Assembly (NCBI GenBank): GCA_965213925.1
Contig: OZ243927.1
Coordinates: forward strand, 3,360,001 to 3,424,000
Length of the DNA stretch: 64,000 nucleotides
Direction of reading: 5' to 3'
Source of the DNA: Trueperaceae bacterium
Lineage (GTDB): Bacteria; Deinococcota; Deinococci; Deinococcales; Trueperaceae
Position 1 is the first letter of the stretch. The number at the start of each line of letters is the position of its first letter. Shown here piece by piece: positions 4,776-57,492 of this stretch. Made by a program: the position numbers and the translations under genes. A model generated the notes under the pieces. It saw only the letters and a list, made by a program, of their open reading frames with translations, had not been told where the DNA came from and did not search any database.

Positions 4776-6107
4776 ATGACGACACGACACTATTTCGGAA
4801 CCGACGGCATCCGTGGGGTCGCGGGCGAGGACCCGCTCACCGCCGCTTTCGCCTTTCAAGTCGGCGTAGCCGCCGCCGAAGCCCTCAGAGACGCGGGCAA
4901 ACATGCGCCCACCGTTCTTATCGGCACGGACACGCGCCGCTCCGGCCCGATGCTCGCTAACGCGCTTTCAGCCGGGCTCGCCTCGAGGGGCGCTGAAGCG
5001 GTGGGCTTAGGCGTGATGCCGACCCCCGGCGTTTCGCATCTCGCCCGCGTCTTGGGCGCGGACGCGGGCGTCGTGATAAGCGCGTCGCACAACCCGTTCG
5101 CGGATAACGGCATCAAGTTTTTCGACCACAAAGGGGAAAAGCTCTCGGACAAGATCGAGGCGGAGATCGAGCGTTACTTAGACAAAATTGACGCGCTAGA
5201 GCCCGTCACGGGCGAGAGCGTTGGCACGGTCCGGCGGCATAACCGCGCAGAAAACAGCGACTACTTCGACTTTCTAGTCGCCAACGGTCCTGACCTCAGC
5301 GGCCGCACCATCGGCTTAGACTGCGCTAACGGCGCGAGCTACAGGCTCGCGCCCGAGGTCTTCCGGGCGCTCGGCGCAGACGTCAAGGTCATCTGCGACG
5401 ACCCCGACGGCATAAACATCAACACAAACTGCGGCTCGACGCACCCGGGCGTGATTCAATCCTACGTGGTAGAAAATAGTCTCGACTTAGGCGTGACCTT
5501 CGACGGCGACGCCGACCGAGTTCTGCTCGTGGACCGCCAGGGTCGGCTCGTGTCGGGCGACCACATGTTGGCGATCTGCGCCCTGCACCGGGGCGAACAA
5601 GCGGTCGTCTCGACGGTGATGGGCAACCTGGGTTTAGAGCATTACTTGGGCAAGCACGGCGTCACGCTGCTGCGCTCCGCCGTAGGCGACCGCTACGTCC
5701 ACGAACTGCTCAACCGCGAGGACCTCACTTTGGGCGGCGAACAGTCAGGACATCTGCTCTTCTTGGATAAAGCGCCTACGGGCGACGGCATCTTTAGCGC
5801 GTTGCAGACCTTGGCGGCTGCGCAGGCGCTAGGCAAACCTTTAGATGCCTGGGTGGACGAGATCGTCATGTACCCGCAAACGCTCCTCAACGTGCGCGTG
5901 GAGCCGGCGCTTAAAGCGAGCGTGGCGGAGCACGAAGAGGTGCGCCAAGCGGTCGAGGCGGCGGCGCTGCGGCTCGAGGGGCAGGGCCGCATCAACCTGC
6001 GCCCGAGCGGGACGGAACCCCTGGTACGCGTAATGGTCGAAGGGCAGGACGAAGCGCTCATCGAAGCCGTCGCCAACGACGTCGCCTCGGTCGTCAAAGC
6101 AATCTAA
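4776..6107 (+). CDS. glmM: Phosphoglucosamine mutase
   Basis: YFGTDGIRG, phosphoserine loop SASHNP, metal loop DGDADR, GGEQSGH and RPSGTEP. Confidence 0.95.
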   Translation: MTTRHYFGTDGIRGVAGEDPLTAAFAFQVGVAAAEALRDAGKHAPTVLIGTDTRRSGPMLANALSAGLASRGAEAVGLGVMPTPGVSHLARVLGADAGVVISASHNPFADNGIKFFDHKGEKLSDKIEAEIERYLDKIDALEPVTGESVGTVRRHNRAENSDYFDFLVANGPDLSGRTIGLDCANGASYRLAPEVFRALGADVKVICDDPDGININTNCGSTHPGVIQSYVVENSLDLGVTFDGDADRVLLVDRQGRLVSGDHMLAICALHRGEQAVVSTVMGNLGLEHYLGKHGVTLLRSAVGDRYVHELLNREDLTLGGEQSGHLLFLDKAPTGDGIFSALQTLAAAQALGKPLDAWVDEIVMYPQTLLNVRVEPALKASVAEHEEVRQAVEAAALRLEGQGRINLRPSGTEPLVRVMVEGQDEALIEAVANDVASVVKAI

Positions 6108-6111
6108 GCCT

Positions 6112-7746
6112 TCAAGATTCGAAAAGTTCGGTGAACGCGAAGCGCGTTCCGTCGAAGAGCCCCCGGTCGCTGAGCTTGAGGTCGGGGATGACCAGCAGCG
6201 CCATAAACGAGAGGGTCATGTAAGGCGCGTGGAGCGCCGAGCCCAGCGCCTTCGCACGCTCACTCAGCTCGCTGTAGTGCGCCGCCACCTCGAACCCGTC
6301 CCGGTCGCTCATCAGACCTGCGATGGGGAGCGCCAGACACACCTTTTCGTCTCCGTCCACCAGCGAGAGACCGCCGCGCCCCTCGAGCACGAGGTTGACC
6401 GCCGCGCAGAGCGCGTCGTCCGAGGTGCCTACAGCGATGACGTTATGCGAGTCGTGCGCCACCGACGAGGCGATCGCGCCGCGTTTCAAACCGAAACCCT
6501 TGACAAAGGCGGCAGCGCAGGGCGCGTCTTCGTAGCGGTTCACGACACTCAGCTTGAGCACGTCGTTCTCTACATCTGGAAGGACCTCGCCCGCCTCGAC
6601 GCGCGCGCGGACGACCTCTCGTTTCGTGACCAGTTGCCCGTCCGACGCGGCGATGACGTTGAGGCGTCCCGGCTGAGCAGCGACGCGAAAGTCCGCGGGC
6701 GTCTTGAGCGCCGCCGCAAAGCGGTTGGGCGTGGCGACGCGCCGACTAGGAAGGTGCGTTGCGCCCCTTTCAGCCACCCGCTGACCTCGTAGATAGGTCG
6801 CTAAAACATCTATAGTCTCGAGGTCATCCACCACGATAAAATCCGCCGCGTCACCTTCGCGCAACAAGCCGATATCCAGCGCGTAGTGCTCGGTGGGCGT
6901 GACGCAAGCGGCGCGTAGCAGCGTCATGAGGTCTAGCCCTTTAGCTAGCCCCCGCTTCACGATGAGGTTGATATGTCCCGCTTCTAAGTCGTCGGGGTGG
7001 AGGTCGTCGGTGCAAAGCATGAGTTTGCCGGGGTAGTCGCGTAGCAGCGGCCAGAGCGACTCGAAGTTCTTCGCCGCCGAGCCCTCGCGGATCGCGAGTT
7101 TAAGCCCCGCCGCCAGCTTCTCCTCTCCCTCCTCGAGGCGCACGCTCTCGTGGTCGGTGGTGATGCCCGCTCTGGCGTAGCGCGCGAGCGGCTCGCCGCG
7201 CAGCCCCGGCGCGTGACCGTCGACGGGTTTGCCGAGCGACGTCGCCGCCGCCATCTTCGCTAGGAGCGCCTCGTCGCCCGCTAACACGCCAGGCACGTTC
7301 ATGACCTCGCTCAAGTAGCCGATTCTAGGGTCTCGCAGCAGCGCGCGCACCTCCTCCAAGCCGAGGCTCGAGCCCGCCGTTTCAAAGCTCGTCGCGGGCA
7401 CGCAAGGCGGCGCACCGAAGCACATCGTTAGGGGGCTCGCGTCCGCGTCGTCCAGCATGAAGCGCACGCCTTTGGCACCCAACACGTTGCCGATCTCGTG
7501 CGGGTCGCTCACTGTGGCGACCGTGCCGTGGCGCACCGCGAGCCGTGCGAACTCGCTCGGGGGCAACATCGAACTTTCGATGTGGACGTGGGCGTCTACG
7601 AAACCGGGCATGAGGTAGTGCTCGAAAGGTCCGTCCTCGCGCGTGATGCGGGTGATGACGCCGCCGGACAGCTCGAGCCGCGCCGGGTAGACCTCCTGGG
7701 CGTGAACGTCAACGAGGTTGCCGGTGAGAAAAGTAGGGCGTTCCAT
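6112..7746 (-). CDS. ade: Adenine deaminase (AdeC type)
   Basis: DAHVHIESS, DPHEIGNV, DGHAPG, TDHE, IREGSAAKN, TDDLHP and SSVAHDSHN motifs. Confidence 0.93.
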   Translation of the reverse strand: MERPTFLTGNLVDVHAQEVYPARLELSGGVITRITREDGPFEHYLMPGFVDAHVHIESSMLPPSEFARLAVRHGTVATVSDPHEIGNVLGAKGVRFMLDDADASPLTMCFGAPPCVPATSFETAGSSLGLEEVRALLRDPRIGYLSEVMNVPGVLAGDEALLAKMAAATSLGKPVDGHAPGLRGEPLARYARAGITTDHESVRLEEGEEKLAAGLKLAIREGSAAKNFESLWPLLRDYPGKLMLCTDDLHPDDLEAGHINLIVKRGLAKGLDLMTLLRAACVTPTEHYALDIGLLREGDAADFIVVDDLETIDVLATYLRGQRVAERGATHLPSRRVATPNRFAAALKTPADFRVAAQPGRLNVIAASDGQLVTKREVVRARVEAGEVLPDVENDVLKLSVVNRYEDAPCAAAFVKGFGLKRGAIASSVAHDSHNVIAVGTSDDALCAAVNLVLEGRGGLSLVDGDEKVCLALPIAGLMSDRDGFEVAAHYSELSERAKALGSALHAPYMTLSFMALLVIPDLKLSDRGLFDGTRFAFTELFES

Positions 7747-10260: not shown

Positions 10261-10431
10261 ATAGGCATCTTTTTAGTTTGCAGAATACTGAACTTTAGAG
10301 AAGAAGTTTTTCCTAGAATGGCGTTTCTCTTATAAATAGTTCTTTATTTCAAAAAGTGAAATATGCCTTGCTCTGTAGGTTCTGGCTCGAGTCAAAAATA
10401 CTACAACGTTGCAAAAAACGCTAATGAGTGC

Positions 10432-10461
10432 TTGACATGGACTCAGGTACTCCGTTATAGT
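10432..10461 (+). promoter_or_regulatory. Sigma70 promoter of tRNA-Ala
   Basis: TTGACA (10432-37), 18-bp spacer, TATAGT (10456-61), 16 bp upstream of the tRNA. Confidence 0.7.
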
Positions 10462-10477
10462 TCTCTTTGCATTTCGC

Positions 10478-10550
10478 GGGGCTTTAGCTCAGCTGGGAGA
10501 GCACCTGCTTTGCAAGCAGGGGGTCATCAGTTCGAATCTGATAAGCTCCA
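10478..10550 (+). tRNA. tRNA-Ala(UGC), 3' CCA not encoded
   Basis: Full cloverleaf: acceptor GGGGCTT/AAGCTCC with G3:U70, D arm GCTC/GAGC, anticodon arm CCTGC-TTTGCAA-GCAGG, T arm ATCAG-TTCGAAT-CTGAT, discriminator A. Confidence 0.96.
10507..10550 (+). repeat. att core, left copy (44 bp)
   Basis: GCTTTGCAAGCAGGGGGTCATCAGTTCGAATCTGATAAGCTCCA, identical to 15464-15507. Confidence 0.93.
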
Positions 10551-10576
10551 TACCGAGAAACAGCGTCAGGGACGTA

Positions 10577-10615
10577 AAGAAAGCACCTCACTTAAAACGG
10601 GGTGCTTCTCTTTTG
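10577..10615 (+). terminator. Intrinsic terminator after the tRNA (element-supplied)
   Basis: AAGCACCTC-ACTTAAAAC-GGGGTGCTT followed by CTCTTTTG. Confidence 0.65.
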
Positions 10616-10623
10616 CCCTAAAA

Positions 10624-10683
10624 TACAGCCAGAATACAGCCACGGGGTATTAAGACCTCTTCATACAGCCACAGGTACAGCCA
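10624..10683 (+). repeat. Four TACAGCCA direct repeats, probable integrase arm-type sites
   Basis: Copies at 10624, 10635, 10664 and 10676 in two pairs; three more copies at the other end (15299, 15319, 15330). Confidence 0.75.
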
Positions 10684-10844
10684 GCGTGACAGACGCCAAA
10701 GGTTAAGTTTTGTCCAGATGCCCCGGCTAAAGAAGAAGGGTGAGACCGTCGTGCGGTTCGTTCGGTAGTCACGCTCAAAAGCCACGCGCTGAGAGCCCCG
10801 CTACGGGCTTAGAGCGACCTCTTGAGGGTGAAGATACCTAACGG

Positions 10845-10877
10845 AAAAAGCCCCTACCCCGTGTAAGGGTAGAGGCT
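10845..10877 (-). terminator. Intrinsic terminator for the 229-aa ORF
   Basis: Hairpin AGCCCCTACCC/GGGTAGAGGCT preceded by an A-run, which is a U-tail on the minus strand. Confidence 0.6.
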
Positions 10878-10899
10878 CGAGGGAGTGCGCCGCGTGCGG

Positions 10900-11589
10900 T
10901 TAGCTGAGCGTAAGTCCCTCTTTGCTCATGGCGGGCTTGCTGTCCCAAATCACGTACGCTTCGAGCGCTTGCTTGAGGTCTTGGCGGGCGTCATTAAGGC
11001 GCGTGGCGGCGGCTAAGCTGTTCACACCCTCCTCTGAGAGCACCGTACCCATAAGCGGGGCTTTACGCTCATCGTATAAGGCTGTCAGGCTCGCACGCCC
11101 GATAGAGGTTAAGTAGCGCCCTGGAAACGGTGTCAGTAGCATCAGGTGACGCATAGCCTCATCCTCATCTTTCGCAAGGTTGAGCATGGCGTCGAGTACC
11201 TTTTCGGGCTCTACGCTGTTGAGAATCATTTGTGCGTCGGCGCGTGCGTTCATCTGTGCGCCCTGGTCGGGTGCGCCCTGGTCGCTCAGGATGCGCTTGA
11301 GTTTGCTCAGATACGTCTCGGTGTTGGTTCCCCAAACACTCTCAATGCTGCTAAGGCGCTGACTCACATCCGCGTTAAGAGGTGTGAACCGCTCGCCCTT
11401 GCCCGCCTCTGTCAAGCGGTGGTCGTTTAAGATGTCCCTTGCTTGCGCGTCGTGGCTGTCTAGCGTGGCGAAAAAGTTCTCCGTATGCCCGTGATAGCTC
11501 GAGGGGCTTGCGGGCGGCATGGGCGCGTTCTGAGCGGCGTTGATAACGGCGGTGAGGTGTTCTCCGAAGGTTTGCTGTGCGATGTTCAT
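10900..11589 (-). CDS. Hypothetical alpha-helical protein of the integrative element
   Basis: 229-aa ORF with AAGGAG RBS and its own terminator; no motif recognised. Confidence 0.7.
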   Translation of the reverse strand: MNIAQQTFGEHLTAVINAAQNAPMPPASPSSYHGHTENFFATLDSHDAQARDILNDHRLTEAGKGERFTPLNADVSQRLSSIESVWGTNTETYLSKLKRILSDQGAPDQGAQMNARADAQMILNSVEPEKVLDAMLNLAKDEDEAMRHLMLLTPFPGRYLTSIGRASLTALYDERKAPLMGTVLSEEGVNSLAAATRLNDARQDLKQALEAYVIWDSKPAMSKEGLTLS

Positions 11590-11769
11590 GTGTTCACTCC
11601 TTTAGTGAGGTTGGATTGTAGGGCGTTTCTTCCCTTACTATATCTATTCTACCATGTCAAGCGTTTACGTTACACTTTCGGGAATATCGGGAGAGGAACG
11701 CCAAAGGAAACACCCCCTTGCTAGAGAAGAGGGTGAGGGACGTGCTAACGGGTCCATCTTTGGATTGGT

Positions 11770-12075
11770 CTACTCTAACAGCTTGTGCCATTGTGGGGTG
11801 ATAGCTTGCGCCTCTGCGTAGTCCCTGAGTGCTTCACGGGTATAGCGCGGGTGTGCGCCTTCGTACTGGACAGCCTCGAGCTTACCCGTTTGACGTAGGT
11901 ACTTGAGCGCGTCCGTGTTGATGCCTAAGACCCGTGCGGCGTCTCCAGGGGTGAGGAGCGGCGGCACATGGCGCGGTATGCCCTTCGACGCTGCCAAGTC
12001 CTCTAGGGCGCGGCGGTAGCCCTCCTCAAAGGCTCGAGCCTCACTGCCTGTGTAGTCGGTCTGTAGGTCACTCAT
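11770..12075 (-). CDS. Helix-turn-helix (HTH_17/MerR-like) DNA-binding protein
   Basis: LLTPGDAARVLGINTDALKYLRQTGKL...HPRY; ATGA overlap with the rep gene. Confidence 0.75.
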   Translation of the reverse strand: MSDLQTDYTGSEARAFEEGYRRALEDLAASKGIPRHVPPLLTPGDAARVLGINTDALKYLRQTGKLEAVQYEGAHPRYTREALRDYAEAQAITPQWHKLLE

Positions 12076-46715: not shown

Positions 46716-48263
46716 ATGGCTAAAGACCAAGGCGAGCCTAGCGCGCTTCGTAACAGAACTAGACAGGAAGTTCGCCTGTCAGAACTTGTCATCGCCCTCT
46801 CCTTGGCCGCCGACCTGGGGATGGGTCAGCCTTTGGGATGGGGGCTTCGGGGCTGTCTATTGGCGATGCACGCTGCCGAGGGGCTCGAGCTAACGCAGCA
46901 CGAACGCAAGGACCTCTATTACCTGTCGCTCCTTCACTACCTGGGCTGTACCACCGACGCCCACCTGTCAGCTCGTCTGTTCGGGCAGGACCGCCGCGCG
47001 ATGCAACACTTTGCCCTCACCCACATGGGTGCCTACCCTATCTTGGAGCAAGCGCGGCCTTCGGAGGTTTCTCGCCCTGTACTGCCCGAGACGCTGCGCG
47101 ACTCCGCTCGGGCCCGCTGCGAGGTCGCCATGCACCTAGCCCGCTGGTGCGACTTCGGCCAGGGGGTCCAAACGGGTTTGTGGCAACTCTTCGAAAGGTG
47201 GGACGGCAGCGGCCTCCCCAACGGGCTTGCGGGTGAGCAGCTTAGCTTACCTGTGCGTATCGTACAGATCGCCCAGGATGCCGAGACCTTTTTTCGCCTC
47301 GAGGGGCTAGCCGGGGTGAAGCGGCTGCTCGCCGAGCGCTCAGGTAAGGGGTATGACCCGCGGTTAGCGGCGCACTTTTTAGACCAAGCGGAGGCGCTTT
47401 TTGCGAGCTTGGAGGTCACCTCGTTACCTCAAGCGGTGCAAGAGGCAGAGCCGGAGGCTATTAGGCGCTTACCTTCCGAGCAGTGCCAAAAGACCTTAGA
47501 GGCGATGGCGGACTTTGCCGATATGAAATCGCCTTTTACCGCCGGGCACGCGCGCGGGGTCGCTGACCTAGCAGCTCGAGCCGCGACCGAAGCGGCTTTG
47601 GATGACACCCAGGTGACGACGATAAAATGGGCGGGCCTCGTTCACGACCTAGGGCGCGTGCGTATCGACGCCGCCATTTTGGATAAGCCGGCGCGTCTCA
47701 GCGATAGCGACTGGGAAGAGGTCCGGTTGCACCCTTACTACACGGAGCGGGTGCTGGCGCGCTGTGAGCCTCTAAGCGACGTTACTCAGCTCGCCGCCCT
47801 CCACCATGAGCGCCTAGACGGCTCGGGCTACCACCGGGGGGTGCCAGCCACGCTCCAGCCGTTCGGGGCGCGGCTGCTTGCGGCGGCGGACGCTTACCAC
47901 GCCATGAACGAAGCCAGGGCCCACCGTGAGGCGCTGCGCCGGGGCGAAGCCGCCGCCGCGCTCAAAGCCGAGGTCAAAGCGGGTAAGCTCGACCCCGAGG
48001 CGGTGGCGTGCGTACTCAAAGCCGCCGGTCATAGGGTGCGCCAGCGCAACCGCGACCTTCCCGGAGGGCTGAGCCCACGTCAAGTGGAGGTGCTGCGCCT
48101 CATCGCCAGAGGTCACACCGATAAAGAAGTGGCTGAACGCTTAAGCATCTCACCGAAAACCGTCGGGCACCACGTGCAGCATATCTACGGCAAGCTCGAG
48201 GTGTCTACCCGGGCCGCCGCGACGCTTTTCGCCGCACAACATCACTTGATCCGCGACCTATAG
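46716..48263 (+). CDS. Tandem HD-GYP-like domains with a C-terminal LuxR HTH
   Basis: ERWDGSGLP (degenerate) and HDLG...HHERLDGSGYH; LSPRQVEVLRLIARG.TDKEVA..L.ISPKTV. Confidence 0.88.
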   Translation: MAKDQGEPSALRNRTRQEVRLSELVIALSLAADLGMGQPLGWGLRGCLLAMHAAEGLELTQHERKDLYYLSLLHYLGCTTDAHLSARLFGQDRRAMQHFALTHMGAYPILEQARPSEVSRPVLPETLRDSARARCEVAMHLARWCDFGQGVQTGLWQLFERWDGSGLPNGLAGEQLSLPVRIVQIAQDAETFFRLEGLAGVKRLLAERSGKGYDPRLAAHFLDQAEALFASLEVTSLPQAVQEAEPEAIRRLPSEQCQKTLEAMADFADMKSPFTAGHARGVADLAARAATEAALDDTQVTTIKWAGLVHDLGRVRIDAAILDKPARLSDSDWEEVRLHPYYTERVLARCEPLSDVTQLAALHHERLDGSGYHRGVPATLQPFGARLLAAADAYHAMNEARAHREALRRGEAAAALKAEVKAGKLDPEAVACVLKAAGHRVRQRNRDLPGGLSPRQVEVLRLIARGHTDKEVAERLSISPKTVGHHVQHIYGKLEVSTRAAATLFAAQHHLIRDL

Positions 48264-53493: not shown

Positions 53494-53527
53494 CTTCTAT
53501 GCGAGTTATGTGCGTCTGCTGCAGAAT
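53494..53527. repeat. 34-bp dyad site S7 (degenerate), start of a longer inverted homology with 57345-57492
   Basis: CTTCTAT GCGA GTT ATGTGC GTC TGCT GCAGAAT. Confidence 0.7.
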
Positions 53528-53766
53528 GGTGCATCCGGTTAATCTCGCGCACGCTTCGGAAGTGGCTTTCCGTATTGCCAGCGCAAACCACTGAGAAAAC
53601 ACCTTGCAGCGGACTTAAAAGATGCACCAACAGCGACCTAGAAGTAGCACGTTGGAAAATTCAACGATTCGAACTCGTATCCTGCAAGGACCGTCCGCTT
53701 ATTCAAGGGGTGGGCAAGCCCCAATTGTATTCACCTCGTGGAGAAAGCAAAAAACTCGACCTCCGC

Positions 53767-55824
53767 TCAGTCTGAGACCGCCACCGGCGCCGACTCGGTG
53801 GGGCGGTAGCGTGCCACCATCCGCGACCAAATCAGGTTGCTCTGGATGCGCGCCTCCAGCACAGCGAGGTAACGCTCGAGCCCCTCATCCGCCGGGCCGA
53901 ACGAAGGTCGCTTCAGCCGCTCCTCGCGGAAGTCCGCGACAGCCTGGTGGTACATCTGCGCCGCCCGGCTCATGGACTCGGGAAGGGAGCCCCCATATTC
54001 TCTCTGTAGTGCGAGCACAAGGTTGTGAACGTCGTCGTGGTGCAGCTCTTTGTTTAGTGAAAAGAGGTCGTTCGCCCAGCACACCGCCTGGTCCGCGAGC
54101 AGATTCAGCCGGGTCACGGTTTGATGCTCGCGCACTTCCTGTGGCAACCAGACGCCGTCAGCGAGTTCGATAAAGGCGGCGTCGATCGAGAGGCCCCCGG
54201 TCACGGGATGCAGGATCAAGTAGCTCGCTAACTCGGGCGGGCTATTCCGAGTCCGGTTCGACGCTTCCCAGACCGTCGCCGCCATGAACGCTTTAACGGT
54301 CGCGCAGAAGCGGGCAAACCACTCGGGTGTGCCGTGCACACGCAGCCGCGCGCCCAGGTCGAAGAGGAGCTGCGCTACCGGTCCCTCGCGCTCGTCGGGC
54401 GGCGTCCCTGCCAGAACCGTAGTCAAGCGGGCGTTCATCCTTTGCAAACGTGCGGGATCGTGACCCACCTTGTCCTCGTCGCAGAGGTCGTCGTAAAAGA
54501 ACATCCACAAATACCAGTCGGCGATGAGTTGTTTGACCTCTTCGCTCGCCTCCCGGTGGATAGTGCTCGCAAGATAGCCGGGGCGGATCGCGGCGACGAG
54601 ACGGTAGAGGTCGCGCTTCGAGGCGATGTCGAAACGCGCCAGCCACCTTACCGCGCCTCGGTCGAGGTGTTCGCTCAGCTCGGCGTCGTAGACGTCGTCA
54701 ACATCGGGCAGTGACGTCAGTTCAGGCGGCGGTAGACGCTCGACATATTTCCTCGTAAACGCCTCGACGCGGTTGCGCCCACCCGCTTTGCTCGCGTAGA
54801 GGGCTTCGTCGGCGCGTCTGATTAACGTGTCCGGCGTGTCCCCTGCCTGACAACTTGCGACGCCGAAGCTGGCCGTAATCCCCCCTATCTCGAAGGGGTA
54901 GTCCGCCACTTGGCGGCGCAGGCGTTCGGCTAAGACGCTCGCGCCTTCAAGTCCGGTGTGAGGCGCGAGGACGAGAAACTCCTCGCCGCCCCAGCGTCCG
55001 AATAGGTCGGTGTCGCGCACGAACGTCGCTGCTAGGTCCGCGACTTTGATCAGCACCTTGTCCCCCGCCTCATGACCGTGAATATCGTTGACCTGTTTGA
55101 AACGGTCGATGTCGACGAGGATGAGCGAGAAGGGGTTACCGTAGCGCTCGCCCACCGCGAACGCTTGAGCGAGGGAAGACTCGAGGGCGCGCCGGTTCGG
55201 CTTGCCTGTCAGTACGTCGAGGTAGGCGAGTCGCTCCATCTGAGCGAGCTGCGTCTGTAACGCTGCGATCTTCGTGCGCGAGAAGGAATAGCTGTAGAGC
55301 ACCCCCGAGTAGAGGGCGTAACTGAGATAGAACTCGGTCAACCCGCTAGGCAGTACGCTCGGAACGCCCCCGGAGGCTGCGAAGGCAGCCGCGAGCCCCG
55401 CTACCAGTGCGAGCGCGTAAATCGACGCTGTGTAGCGCAGCGCCGAGCGTTGCTCGAATAGTATATAGGCCAGTATGAAGATAGTCGGCGACCAGACGTA
55501 GAGCTGGACGAGCTCCTGTTGGGCGCTCGCCTGAGCGTAACTCAGATAGACGCTGGTCGCGAACTTGCCGATAAAAACAGCCGCCAGCACGCTGTAGACG
55601 AAATTCTCGATGTAAAGAAGCGCGGGCTTGCGGAGGTGAACGGCGAGGCTCGCGGCGAGTAGCAGTGCCGCTAAAACGGGTAAGACCAGCGCGTCGAAGG
55701 CGGCAGGCTGCCCGTCCTGGTAATCAACCCAATAGGTCGCCGCGACCGCGACGCTCAGCAGGGGCAGAACGACACGGTAAATCTGGCGCTTGATCGTCTG
55801 GTGGGTGGGTGAGGTCGTGTCCAT
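53767..55824 (-). CDS. Membrane diguanylate cyclase fused to a class I terpene synthase
   Basis: About 5-6 N-terminal TMs; GGDEF domain with DVLTG..NRR, DIDRFKQVND.HGH, RDTD I-site and GGEEF. C-terminal terpene cyclase with FFYDDLCD, WANDLFSLNKE, HNLV and WSRMVARY. Confidence 0.88.
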   Translation of the reverse strand: MDTTSPTHQTIKRQIYRVVLPLLSVAVAATYWVDYQDGQPAAFDALVLPVLAALLLAASLAVHLRKPALLYIENFVYSVLAAVFIGKFATSVYLSYAQASAQQELVQLYVWSPTIFILAYILFEQRSALRYTASIYALALVAGLAAAFAASGGVPSVLPSGLTEFYLSYALYSGVLYSYSFSRTKIAALQTQLAQMERLAYLDVLTGKPNRRALESSLAQAFAVGERYGNPFSLILVDIDRFKQVNDIHGHEAGDKVLIKVADLAATFVRDTDLFGRWGGEEFLVLAPHTGLEGASVLAERLRRQVADYPFEIGGITASFGVASCQAGDTPDTLIRRADEALYASKAGGRNRVEAFTRKYVERLPPPELTSLPDVDDVYDAELSEHLDRGAVRWLARFDIASKRDLYRLVAAIRPGYLASTIHREASEEVKQLIADWYLWMFFYDDLCDEDKVGHDPARLQRMNARLTTVLAGTPPDEREGPVAQLLFDLGARLRVHGTPEWFARFCATVKAFMAATVWEASNRTRNSPPELASYLILHPVTGGLSIDAAFIELADGVWLPQEVREHQTVTRLNLLADQAVCWANDLFSLNKELHHDDVHNLVLALQREYGGSLPESMSRAAQMYHQAVADFREERLKRPSFGPADEGLERYLAVLEARIQSNLIWSRMVARYRPTESAPVAVSD

Positions 55825-55918
55825 CTAAGCTCACGCTATCAAGCAAGGATATCCGGGAGCGTTAAATTTTGCGCACCTTCACCTGCGGGTACATGGTAAA
55901 AGCGCGAGGGGAGGACGG

Positions 55919-57283: not shown

Positions 57284-57458
57284 GATAGAGACCCATTCGC
57301 GTAGCGTTCAGCGATGCTCATGCAAAAACTCCGACTACGATGAAGCTAGACATTCTTGGTCCATCTTGAAAGTTCGTCGCAGAATGCCTATTCGACGCTC
57401 AGGGCTGATGACGTAGAAAGCTATTTTCAAAGTGTGCGCGAGATTTACCGGATGCACC

Positions 57459-57492
57459 ATTCTGCGGCGAACGCGCGCATTTCACGCAGAAG
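57459..57492. repeat. 34-bp dyad site S8
   Basis: ATTCTGC GGCG AAC GCGCGC ATT TCAC GCAGAAG. Confidence 0.82.

Follow-up and report, generated by a model that had tools for sequence, protein, structure and literature searches.

A Trueperaceae bacterium carries a gene whose product joins a membrane domain of six transmembrane (TM) helices, a GGDEF domain and a class I terpene synthase (TS) in one polypeptide of 685 residues. The gene lies on the reverse strand of a 64,000-nucleotide stretch of contig OZ243927.1, hereafter the window, and is a genuine conserved gene, not an assembly artefact. A first-pass annotation had proposed a coupling between c-di-GMP signalling and terpene chemistry, and this general inference is strongly supported by comparisons of sequence, which revealed both the conservation of the fusion and the position of related TS genes beside membrane GGDEF-EAL genes. 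Among the mechanisms considered, we rank first, with a probability of about 0.4, that the membrane domain reads the terpene made by the TS and sets c-di-GMP synthesis accordingly.

An intact and conserved fusion gene

The open reading frame (ORF) begins with an ATG codon and is free of interruptions in the ORF listing (Table 1). Pfam matches to both the GGDEF domain and the TS lie within it, bearing out the single in-frame ORF first described, and each of the motifs named at that time (RDTD, GGEEF, DDLCD, NDLFSLNKE and W/RY) was located in the translation. Read support across the GGDEF/TS junction had been proposed as a check, and contigs from public runs were found to span this junction (about 54670-54762) free of gaps. 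The contig of X2 record 10 (54232-54819) crosses it with 0 differences to the fusion, and those of X1 records 2 and 3 (54524-54817) likewise cross it ungapped. Since the source sample may be among these public runs, the junction contigs provide weak independent support.

Independent support for the fusion came from 19 protein clusters, 37-93% identical to it, that contain both PF00990 and PF19086. At 12 of 12 further loci, an RxxD motif, five residues, GG(D/E)EF, DDxCD, the NSE triad and the RY pair were encoded in one open frame, and one of the fused homologues, a partial protein, comes from a Deinococcales MAG. Together, the fused homologue clusters, the junction-spanning contigs and the 12 open-frame loci rule out an assembly chimera. 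Both domains are under constraint: the invariant columns of A1, an alignment of 20 rows, include all catalytic residues of the GGDEF domain and of the TS.

Across 1.84 billion representatives at 50% identity, only about 6 match the whole profile; Pfam was run on three of these whole-profile representatives (P0235-P0237). A literature search found no paper on a GGDEF-terpene synthase fusion or on its pairing with signalling genes. Literature and database searches thus agree with the earlier statement that no characterised protein has this architecture.

In an AlphaFold2 (AF2) model of the fusion, per-domain pLDDT was high, pTM was low (0.51) and the packing between domains was without confidence. 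Blastp alignments of stand-alone TS relatives start at about residue 368 of the fusion, just past the linker.

Table 1. Positions of the fusion gene, its parts and its immediate surroundings in the window
Feature	Position	Strand	Basis or remark
Whole gene, 6TM-GGDEF-terpene synthase fusion, 685 aa	53767..55824	-	ORF list, Pfam, 19 fused homologue clusters
Six-helix N-terminal membrane domain with short loops, residues 1-185	55270..55824	-	Hydropathy, AF2, conservation
Stalk helix and GGDEF diguanylate cyclase domain, residues 186-357	54754..55269	-	PF00990
I-site RDTD (RxxD), residues 270-273	55006..55017	-	Translation; five residues before GGEEF
Active site GGEEF, residues 279-283	54976..54990	-	Translation; invariant in A1
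Linker RKYVERLPPP, residues 358-367	54724..54753	-	AF2 pLDDT <50 at 358-362
Class I TS domain, residues 368-673	53806..54723	-	PF19086, PDB match, RrNerS identity
Asp-rich motif DDLCD, residues 445-449	54478..54492	-	D445, D446, C448, D449 invariant
His539 codon CAT, pyrophosphate-sensor position	54208..54210	-	A1; X2 record 9, 0 differences
NSE triad NDLFSLNKE, residues 585-593	54046..54072	-	N585, D586, S589, K592, E593 invariant
C-terminal RY pair, residues 672-673	53806..53811	-	W666 six residues earlier; invariant
Stop codon of fusion gene	53767-53769	-	
Divergent intergenic region, fusion/P450, 94 nt	55825..55918	.	ORF coordinates
Divergent cytochrome P450, 454 aa	55919..57283	+	PF00067 E 9.4e-87
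Left arm, 77-nt imperfect inverted repeat	53494..53570	.	Brackets fusion-P450 pair
Right arm, 77-nt imperfect inverted repeat	57416..57492	.	Downstream of P450

Domains of the fusion and the neighbouring P450 gene

The multi-TM N-terminus of the original description was resolved by hydropathy and two AlphaFold2 models into six TM helices (residues 6-36, 42-64, 69-97, 99-122, 125-151 and 162-201), the sixth of which continues directly into the GGDEF domain. Loop counts of Lys and Arg agree with an N-in, C-in topology, which would place both the GGDEF domain and the TS in the cytoplasm. When fused and unfused relatives were compared, intramembrane polar residues were found to be kept across the fused family (T30, E73, K87, Q107, W111 and E164). 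The best four fold matches of the membrane-domain model were all cyclase membrane domains, with Z-scores in the chance range for helical bundles: adenylyl cyclase AC9 (6r3q_A) was matched at Z 14.1 (175 aligned residues, rmsd 3.4), where chance bundles reach about 13-14, and ImcA (8wcn_B) and AC5 (8sl3_A) at Z 12.7 and Z 12.4, likewise within that range. Six-helix domains of membrane adenylyl cyclases have been reported as lipid receptors in two studies (PMC11606603, PMC12505454).

An identity with MASE6 (PF20966) was not supported, as the window N-terminus had no match to this profile even at E up to 10. Among the relatives, one passes the MASE6 cut-off (28.9 versus 27.4) and three match weakly; in one profile search the remaining 34 of 35 proteins had no match to MASE6. 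The fused 6TM-GGDEF module is part of a broad family, to which several paralogues encoded in the same genome as the fusion also belong. At 79 loci of this family, tblastn with the TS and TM parts gave 0 matches to a TS beside the 6TM-GGDEF gene. These loci came from a scan of contigs with a profile of the full-length alignment, in which ordinary GGDEF proteins dominated through GRWGGEEF and no fused locus was recovered. That the family elsewhere lacks a nearby TS argues that a generic sensor gained a TS.

The GGDEF domain was described at first as apparently intact, and its GGEEF motif, the RDTD I-site five residues upstream and the invariance of its catalytic residues agree with that description. 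PF00990 was matched at residues 200-352 (E 2.1e-42, 145.1 bits versus a cut-off of 23.8) and TIGR00254 at 142.6 bits (cut-off 37.4). Within A1, R270 and D273 of the I-site are invariant in 20/20 rows, as are D238, D240, N246, D247, D255, R277, K346 and R352; by analogy with PleD, we take the invariant residues to have metal- and guanine-binding roles. These features suggest an active, product-inhibited diguanylate cyclase.

Completeness of the terpene cyclase, also proposed from the start, was confirmed by a match to Terpene_syn_C_2 (PF19086) above cut-off at residues 436-631 (E 7.9e-44, 150.2 bits versus 23.7) and by the canonical spacing of DDLCD (445), the NSE triad (+140) and the RY pair (+87). 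W666, N601, R505 and E553 were located as well, and the Pro -21 and Leu -14 anchors (PMC8450962) were absent at those offsets in the window TS. The best match to a solved structure was (+)-T-muurolol synthase 9hqd (also 9hqi), with an E-value of 9.1e-52 over residues 386-679. NCBIfam product equivalogs for selinadiene, epi-cubebol, isoafricanol, cadinene, epi-isozizaene and pentalenene synthases were all below cut-off, the best at 123.1 bits versus 450. On these motifs and relationships, we infer that the window TS is active and that FPP is its substrate.

One detail of the window TS was missed in the initial description. By the rule of PMC8450962 and PMC5082573, the pyrophosphate-sensor position is residue 539, 46 residues before the NSE triad, and is occupied by His. 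The window's copy is the sole row of A1 with His at this position; the 19 other rows have Arg, and Arg539 is also found in the three closest relatives (P0001, P0223 and P0224; 93-96% identity). Mutation of the sensor Arg harms selinadiene synthase, SmTS1 is active with Gly at this position (PMC8450962), and Leu occupies it in 3 of 30 sister TSs. His539 may weaken the TS of the window strain.

The divergent gene upstream of the fusion encodes a general cytochrome P450 (PF00067, 292 bits versus 22.8). Against the terpene-oxidising equivalogs, pentalenene oxygenase and CYP170-type, it scored below cut-off (229.2 versus 800 and 209.2 versus 700); its best NCBIfam matches are nonetheless terpene-oxidising P450s, at scores far below those cut-offs. 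The fusion-P450 pair is kept in 3/3 genomes of the genus, G022 and G023 included, despite differing outer flanks, and in both of these genomes the roughly 150 nt past the P450 gene are conserved at 93-94%. The P450 is a probable tailoring enzyme. Outside the genus of the window, no P450 partner was found and the gene context of the fusion was not conserved. The left arm of the inverted repeat belongs to a small repeat that is dispersed in the genome, where it has 8 matches. A polyprenyl synthase was considered as a further cluster member and rejected, as the genome has two copies, both at other sites and the closer of them at a distance of about 68 kb.

Terpene synthases and signalling genes in two phyla

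Among genomes of the host phylum, TS genes were found in 22 of 364 (12/127 in family f1, 9/125 in family f2 and 0/111 in four other families, with G000 added), and all were long open frames except on a contaminant-like contig and in one fragmented assembly. Within the host family, the only stand-alone TS was that of G080; its contig also bears SusD and PorP/SprF genes, so it probably does not belong to this genome bin. No TS was found in three named Deinococcota genomes. DdrB (PF12747) was not found in the window's 96.9%-complete genome; the same profile matches D. radiodurans.

In a phylogenetic tree, 20 of 21 fused TS domains grouped in a single clade (SH-aLRT 96), and a single change is enough to account for all 21. 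On this topology, the fusion is likely to have arisen once. The sister clade consists of stand-alone Rubrobacter-type TSs, RrNerS included. At one locus (L171), a small TM-GGDEF gene with a RADD I-site and GGEEF lies 68 nt upstream of a TS gene in the same direction, and GGDEF matches were found at the equivalent position in L172-L174. Thus, a gene order of this type, the putative state before the fusion, exists. The first-pass annotation had held that homologues always encoded as two genes would refute its reading. This refutation fails: the relatives in Rubrobacterales are encoded as two genes, but the fused form is conserved in its own right.

In Rubrobacterales, 29 of 30 TS loci adjoin a 6TM-(PAS)-GGDEF-EAL gene within flanks of 1.5 kb, against a background of 57 GGDEF domains in 5 genomes (about 16 Mb in total). 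The TS and the neighbour 6TM domain occurred together in 24 of 104 genomes, each alone in 1, and neither in 78, related genomes among these not being independent samples. Of 47 metagenome loci, 5 were fused and 22 had a signalling neighbour. The metagenome pairs of TS and neighbour were found in four orientations, with gaps or overlaps of 0-4 nt, and at some of these loci the neighbour 6TM domain bears PAS-HisKA-HATPase(-REC) in place of GGDEF-EAL. A membrane domain that stays constant while its output varies is consistent with a sensor that is matched to the product of the TS. Collectively, the Rubrobacterales pairing and the histidine-kinase variants indicate that the link between terpenes and signalling is older and wider than the fusion. 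The partner gene was missing at 6 loci of TS relatives that are more distant (26-35% identity) and whose flanks were long enough to show it.

The neighbour 6TM domain (profile A4) was absent from 6/6 fusion-carrying genomes searched, and by this measure the fused form and the neighbour form exclude each other. Comparison of the window 6TM domain with A4 gave an hhalign probability of 0.4% (0.7% with an 82-row profile), and this lack of detectable homology between the two membrane domains gives no support to a shared terpene-binding sensor. A complex prediction for the neighbour of L130 (residues 195-753) with its TS, run without controls, scored 0.00, which speaks neither for nor against a complex.

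Mechanisms of coupling and comparison with known systems

In the mechanism that we prefer, an option that emerged from the comparative data, the six-helix sensor would lead through the stalk helix to a product-inhibited diguanylate cyclase and, after about 10 residues, to a sesquiterpene-type TS on the cytoplasmic face. The TS would convert FPP to a lipophilic terpenoid, which in the genus of the window the P450 would oxidise further. The terpenoid would enter the membrane, where the 6TM domain would read it and set c-di-GMP synthesis, so that information would flow from product to c-di-GMP. Synthase, receptor and transducer would then be one chain and one circuit, in a layout comparable to that of the DSF/Rpf system. 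A wider proposal is more tentative: a sesquiterpenoid may serve as a self-made, membrane-borne signal in two radiation- and desiccation-tolerant lineages, perceived by 6TM sensors that are paired with or fused to the TS and that have c-di-GMP or histidine-kinase outputs.

The strongest competitor, itself somewhat doubtful and in line with the first of the two mechanisms in the first-pass annotation, reverses the direction: control of the TS would lie with the membrane sensor, with dimerisation of the GGDEF domain or with c-di-GMP at the I-site, and the terpene would be an output, not an input. The order of sensor, transmitter and C-terminal enzyme is usual for signalling proteins, and the fused 6TM-GGDEF module belongs to a generic diguanylate cyclase family otherwise without links to a TS; such an order, together with a generic sensor family, favours gating of the TS by the sensor. 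The linker is very short, the I-site is kept throughout A1 and at all 12 further loci, and the cyclase and phosphodiesterase genes that adjoin the TS in Rubrobacterales would suit an effector TS under local control by c-di-GMP. However, ordinary diguanylate cyclases commonly have I-sites, and the TS has no known c-di-GMP-binding motif, nor was one found in it. In addition, members of the TS clade are paired with neighbour 6TM domains that carry histidine-kinase outputs, and such outputs cannot act through c-di-GMP.

It is rather improbable that the two enzymes are merely co-localised, acting independently from a common anchor and promoter that let both answer to one condition, with the TS held at the membrane near its product and no allostery between them. 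The low pTM, the packing of domains without confidence and the unconserved gene context outside the genus are consistent with such an arrangement, but the pairing in a second phylum (29/30 loci; 24/1/1/78 genomes; four orientations) is hard to explain by chance or co-expression, and the mutual exclusivity of fused and neighbour forms would be left unexplained. Least probable of all is the second mechanism of the first-pass annotation, in which the TS fold is a prenyl diphosphate (FPP) sensor that reports isoprenoid supply to the cyclase and forms little or no product: enzyme-derived sensor domains are common and the window copy lacks the sensor Arg, yet the metal- and diphosphate-binding motifs are invariant over 37-93% identity, Arg539 is present in 19/19 other rows, the synthase that is its nearest characterised relative is catalytically active, the genus retains a P450 of terpene type next to the gene, and the TS lies C-terminal to the cyclase, which is not the position of a sensor.

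The role of most bacterial terpenes is open and the inputs of c-di-GMP enzymes are mostly unknown; this one TS clade ties both, by a fusion in one phylum and by a near-obligate gene pair in another. Were the terpene product the signal read by the membrane domain, bacterial terpenes would gain a defined signalling role and an identified receptor, and the window protein would combine the synthase, the receptor and the source of the second messenger in one chain. Were the coupling reversed, this would be the first terpene synthase under second-messenger control. Either direction would link secondary metabolism with the main bacterial lifestyle switch. Since the products of RrNerS are known (nerolidol and linalool), the response of the sensor to a terpenoid can be tested now.

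RrNerS of Rubrobacter radiotolerans (AHY47823.1; P0158) is the closest characterised relative of the window TS, with 43% identity over 91% and with DDLCD and the NSE type in common. According to PMC7192455, it makes trans-nerolidol from FPP and linalool from GPP. RrNerS differs from the fusion in being a stand-alone soluble protein of 315 aa, and the signalling protein that accompanies it is encoded separately, with a different 6TM domain and with an EAL domain; at the RrNerS locus (L167), a convergent PAS-GGDEF-EAL gene lies 68 nt away. In a Roseiflexus enzyme (81/175/221/309; PMC5082573), the spacing of DDxxD, sensor, NSE and RY equals that of the window TS. The T-muurolol, 10-epi-cubebol, selinadiene and epi-isozizaene synthases, unlike the fusion, are without a GGDEF or membrane domain. 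The sole published association that we found between a TS and a domain of cyclic-nucleotide type is that of 2-MIB synthase with a Family 2B encapsulin that has a cAMP-binding-domain fold; according to PMC11550324, the domain there neither binds cAMP nor modulates the synthase. This system further differs from the fusion in that the partner is a protein shell instead of a membrane enzyme and c-di-GMP plays no part.

In layout, with a bundle of six TM helices, a stalk helix and a GGDEF domain, the membrane and cyclase parts of the fusion resemble P. aeruginosa ImcA (8wcn; PMC10904736). The fold match of the window's 6TM model to 8wcn_B extends over 180 residues at a Z-score in the chance range, and sequence similarity of the TM parts was not significant. 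By sequence, the window GGDEF domain matches both 8wcn and PleD (1w25), with RxxD five residues before GGEEF. To our knowledge, no membrane diguanylate cyclase with a hexahelical anchor has a C-terminal terpene synthase.

In the DSF/Rpf system, the synthase RpfF produces a fatty-acid signal, RpfC is a polytopic membrane sensor and RpfG is an HD-GYP protein. That system differs from the fusion in that homology is lacking, the signal is a fatty acid, c-di-GMP is degraded by HD-GYP via a phosphorelay, and synthase and sensor are separate proteins. Under the reading in which the terpenoid sets c-di-GMP synthesis, the two would be alike in having a dedicated synthase, a lipophilic signal, an adjoining polytopic sensor and a c-di-GMP output.

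Architecture, conservation and origin of the fusion protein

Analysis of the ORF list and Pfam matches bore out the first-pass annotation of a single-ORF membrane GGDEF-terpene synthase (TS) fusion, and every motif named there was placed (table). Hydropathy and two AlphaFold2 models concurred on six transmembrane (TM) helices with very short loops (pLDDT 85.7 and pTM 0.51 for the whole protein; 81.5 and 0.74 for the N-terminal part). In AlphaFold2, TM helix 6 (residues 162-201) led on to the GGDEF domain in the form of a stalk, model confidence was low at residues 358-362, and the helical TS fold ran from 381 to 669. Since alignment of stand-alone TS relatives began at about residue 368, the true GGDEF-TS linker comprises only about 10 residues. 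The distribution of Lys and Arg was compatible with an N-in, C-in topology, and both enzymes are therefore predicted to be cytoplasmic.

Features of the fusion and its surroundings in the window, and gene orders at loci (L) with a stand-alone TS
Feature	Position or locus	Strand	Remark
Fusion gene	53767..55824	-	one ORF, 685 aa
GGDEF domain, PF00990	residues 200-352		Pfam, E 2.1e-42
Terpene_syn_C_2, PF19086	residues 436-631		Pfam, E 7.9e-44
RDTD (I-site)	residues 270-273		five residues ahead of GGEEF
GGEEF	residues 279-283
DDLCD	residues 445-449
NDLFSLNKE	residues 585-593
W666, RY pair	RY, residues 672-673
Cytochrome P450 gene	55919-57283	+	divergent from fusion across 94 nt
77-nt imperfect inverted repeat arms	53494-53570 and 57416-57492		bracket fusion-P450 pair, 78% complementary
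Neighbour upstream of TS	L118		7-nt overlap
Neighbour downstream of TS	L123, L130, L160		0-4-nt gaps
Neighbour convergent with TS	L120, L122, L125, L138
Neighbour divergent from TS	L135

The fusion is genuine. Contigs from public runs, which may include the source sample, spanned the GGDEF-TS junction gap-free. Homologues were not always encoded as two genes: among 5.8 billion protein clusters searched, 19 had the fused form (P0001-P0019; 37-93% identity, 563-770 aa) with precomputed PF19086 and PF00990, and a search limited to the TS region added cluster P0121. Among 1.84 billion 50%-identity representatives, a profile of A1, the 20-row alignment of fused proteins, gave about six full-length matches (731-1040 bits), below which scores fell to at most 456 bits and reflected single modules. 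Pfam detected both domains in three of the six (P0235-P0237). Thus, the architecture is rare but genuine.

Within the host's family, 13 of 128 genomes carried a TS homologue, 12 of them within open frames of 667-1070 aa. The thirteenth, a stand-alone 315-aa gene (genome G080, contig C53, locus L113), lay near SusD-like and PorP/SprF (type IX secretion) genes; the locus resembles bin contamination, and the contig is probably foreign to its genome bin. Phylum-wide, TS was present in 22/364 genomes (12/127 in the host family, 9/125 in a second family and 0/111 in four others, with the window's genome counted separately). RxxD followed after five residues by GG(D/E)EF, DDxCD, NSE and RY shared one open frame at 12/12 loci inspected. 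The window's genome held 39 GGDEF matches and only one TS. Tandem TS proteins were also seen, with four Terpene_syn_C_2 domains in P0265 (1617 aa) and two in P0288.

Invariant in A1 were D238, D240, N246, D247, D255, R270, D273, R277, GGEEF 279-283, K346 and R352 of the GGDEF part, and D445, D446, C448, D449, R524, N585, D586, S589, K592, E593, N601, W666, R672 and Y673 of the TS part. Conservation of both catalytic centres, and of the I-site, therefore extends down to 36% identity. At residue 539, the pyrophosphate-sensor position 46 residues before the NSE triad, the window encodes His (CAT, 54208-54210); Arg occupies this position in the other 19 A1 rows and in the three closest relatives of the fusion (93-96% identity). 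An identical protein was recorded from two contigs (P0222), and a public-run contig over codon 539 showed no difference. An important role has been reported for the sensor Arg of selinadiene synthase, and SmTS1 is active despite Gly at this position (PMC8450962); Leu occurred there in 3/30 sister-clade TSs. The effect of His539 on the window's TS is uncertain.

Among solved structures, the best match to the TS domain was (+)-T-muurolol synthase (9hqd, E 9.1e-52), with other sesquiterpene cyclases ranking next, and all product-specific NCBIfam models scored far under cut-off. The nearest stand-alone sequences bore the name Rubrobacter (38-43% identity). Protein P0158 (AHY47823.1) is RrNerS, characterised as an enzyme that yields trans-nerolidol from FPP and linalool from GPP (PMC7192455). 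Maximum-likelihood analysis of 88 TS domains (quick search, LG+G4; P0215 and P0218 left out for their short alignments) placed 20/21 fused domains in one clade (SH-aLRT 96), with the long-branched P0019 adjoining it and Rubrobacter-type enzymes as the sister group. A single state change accommodated all 21 fused domains, and the fusion likely arose once.

Genes adjoining the fusion

The best NCBIfam matches of the divergent P450 were terpene oxygenases, far under cut-off. The fusion-P450 pair was kept in both other genomes of the genus though the outer flanks differed; the P450 was not found beside more distant fused genes. The bracketing repeat is a small dispersed repeat with eight matches in the genome, two at 99-100% identity, and in both sister genomes the sequence following the P450 showed 93-94% conservation. 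Together the fusion and P450 genes may form a mobile cassette. Both polyprenyl synthases of this genome were located elsewhere in it. A P450 32% identical to that of the window was found 119 nt after a distant stand-alone TS at locus L149 (1184-3494; 31% identity for the TS); TS-P450 pairing thus recurs in another branch.

A GAF-GGDEF-EAL or PAS-GAF-GGDEF-EAL gene adjoined the fusion or its P450 in genomes G023 and G012 (L105 13626-15422, L107 6945-9197), and a cNMP-binding protein came after the fusion in G022 (L104 11142-11834). In the window, 5.5 kb from the fusion, 46716-48263 (+) encodes a 515-aa protein with about 260 N-terminal residues bearing no domain assignment, an HD_5 (HD-GYP-type) domain (residues 263-428, E 7.5e-38) and a C-terminal LuxR/GerE HTH; the protein is possibly a transcription factor related to c-di-GMP.

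Stand-alone terpene synthases and membrane signalling genes

A metagenome scan by TS-only alignment yielded 47 loci: 5 fused, 22 stand-alone with parts of one neighbour type within 2.5 kb, and 20 without it, mostly short contigs or more distant TSs. Six loci truly lacked the neighbour: their flanks reached 2 kb or more on either side, and their TSs had 26-35% identity. The neighbour protein (about 650-780 aa) has about six TM helices, often PAS, then GGDEF and EAL; its GGDEF motif, EAL, DDFGTG and EGVE are kept and RxxD is absent. At L122, IS110-type (5336-6475) and DDE (10385-11776) transposase genes flanked the TS and GGDEF-EAL pair, which hints at mobility.

TS was present in 25/104 Rubrobacterales genomes, and the neighbour lay within the 1.5-kb flanks at 29 of 30 TS loci; at the sole exception (L192, from genome G135), one of the flanks was only about 450 nt long. 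Five of these genomes together held 57 GGDEF domains in about 16 Mb, with 7-17 per genome, so chance adjacency to a TS would be about 1%. A profile of A4, the neighbour's six-TM domain, also matched 25/104 genomes; in raw counts from kindred genomes, both TS and domain occurred in 24, TS only in G205 and the domain only in G202 (contig ends each), and neither in 78. Almost every A4-type copy adjoined a TS copy. Leaving out G135, which is flagged as unpublished, the neighbour was found at 28/28 loci and both in 23 genomes. Collectively, in each of two phyla this TS clade has membrane signalling proteins as obligate partners. The proposed coupling of c-di-GMP signalling to terpene chemistry was in part supported and also widened, as the signalling link reaches stand-alone TSs in a second phylum.

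At L147 and L129, the neighbour-type membrane domain beside TS bore PAS-HisKA-HATPase-REC and 3xPAS-HisKA-HATPase. Thus, TS has the membrane domain as its constant partner, whereas outputs are variable. Locus L167 encodes RrNerS letter for letter; 68 nt away lies a PAS-GGDEF-EAL gene in convergent orientation. At L171, a 285-aa TM-GGDEF gene (RADD I-site, GGEEF) lay 68 nt upstream of TS and co-directional with it, and GGDEF matches occupied the equivalent position at L172-L174; such a gene order could be a source of the GGDEF::TS fusion.

When the two ARRANGEMENTS, the window's six-TM domain and the neighbour's, were compared, no homology was detected (hhalign probability 0.4% and 0.7%), and the A4 profile had no match in 6/6 fusion-carrying genomes. 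The fused and neighbour forms are therefore alternatives. The fused six-TM-GGDEF module falls in a broad family of 350-400-aa diguanylate cyclases (DGCs), including P0020-P0035 and many A1-profile matches, which, at 79 loci elsewhere, had no TS nearby. At least five paralogues without TS were seen in the window's genome (contig C1 at 1654459, 3938472, 241366, 2912231 and 803699), their alignments to the fusion beginning near residues 5-15 and ending near residue 355. Y16, P49, E73, W111 and P113 are common to the fusion and this family; T30, K87, Q107 and E164 are fixed in the fused proteins' own membrane domain. Pfam gave this domain no name, MASE6 passing in one relative only. The best fold matches of the window's six-TM model were the six-TM domains of adenylyl cyclase AC9 (Z 14.1), DGC ImcA (12.7), AC5 (12.4) and Rv1625c (9.7), values that helical bundles can reach by chance. 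The cyclase membrane domains have been reported as lipid receptors (PMC11606603, PMC12505454).

Possible mechanisms and comparison with known systems

We infer that both the GGDEF and TS domains are active and that the TS substrate is FPP. The favoured reading, at a probability of roughly 0.4, is a circuit in which the hexahelical domain would sense a lipophilic terpene product inside the membrane and would in turn set DGC output. It is favoured mainly because the sensor is constant and its outputs vary, and also because the product of the nearest characterised relative is lipophilic. The chief rival, in which TS is gated by the sensor, by dimerisation or by c-di-GMP, is argued for by the domain order and by the fused DGC belonging to a generic family, and is a tentative second choice. 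Mere co-localisation of the two enzymes is improbable, and a TS serving as an FPP-sensing pseudo-enzyme is less probable still.

The signalling hypothesis for the link between TS and membrane sensor is testable. Full-text literature searches, with most subscription journals outside their scope, returned no description of a GGDEF-terpene synthase protein or of a c-di-GMP-terpene link. Among published cases, the closest is the 2-MIB synthase encapsulin, in which a terpene synthase is associated with a cyclic-nucleotide-type domain; this CBD does not bind cAMP (PMC11550324).
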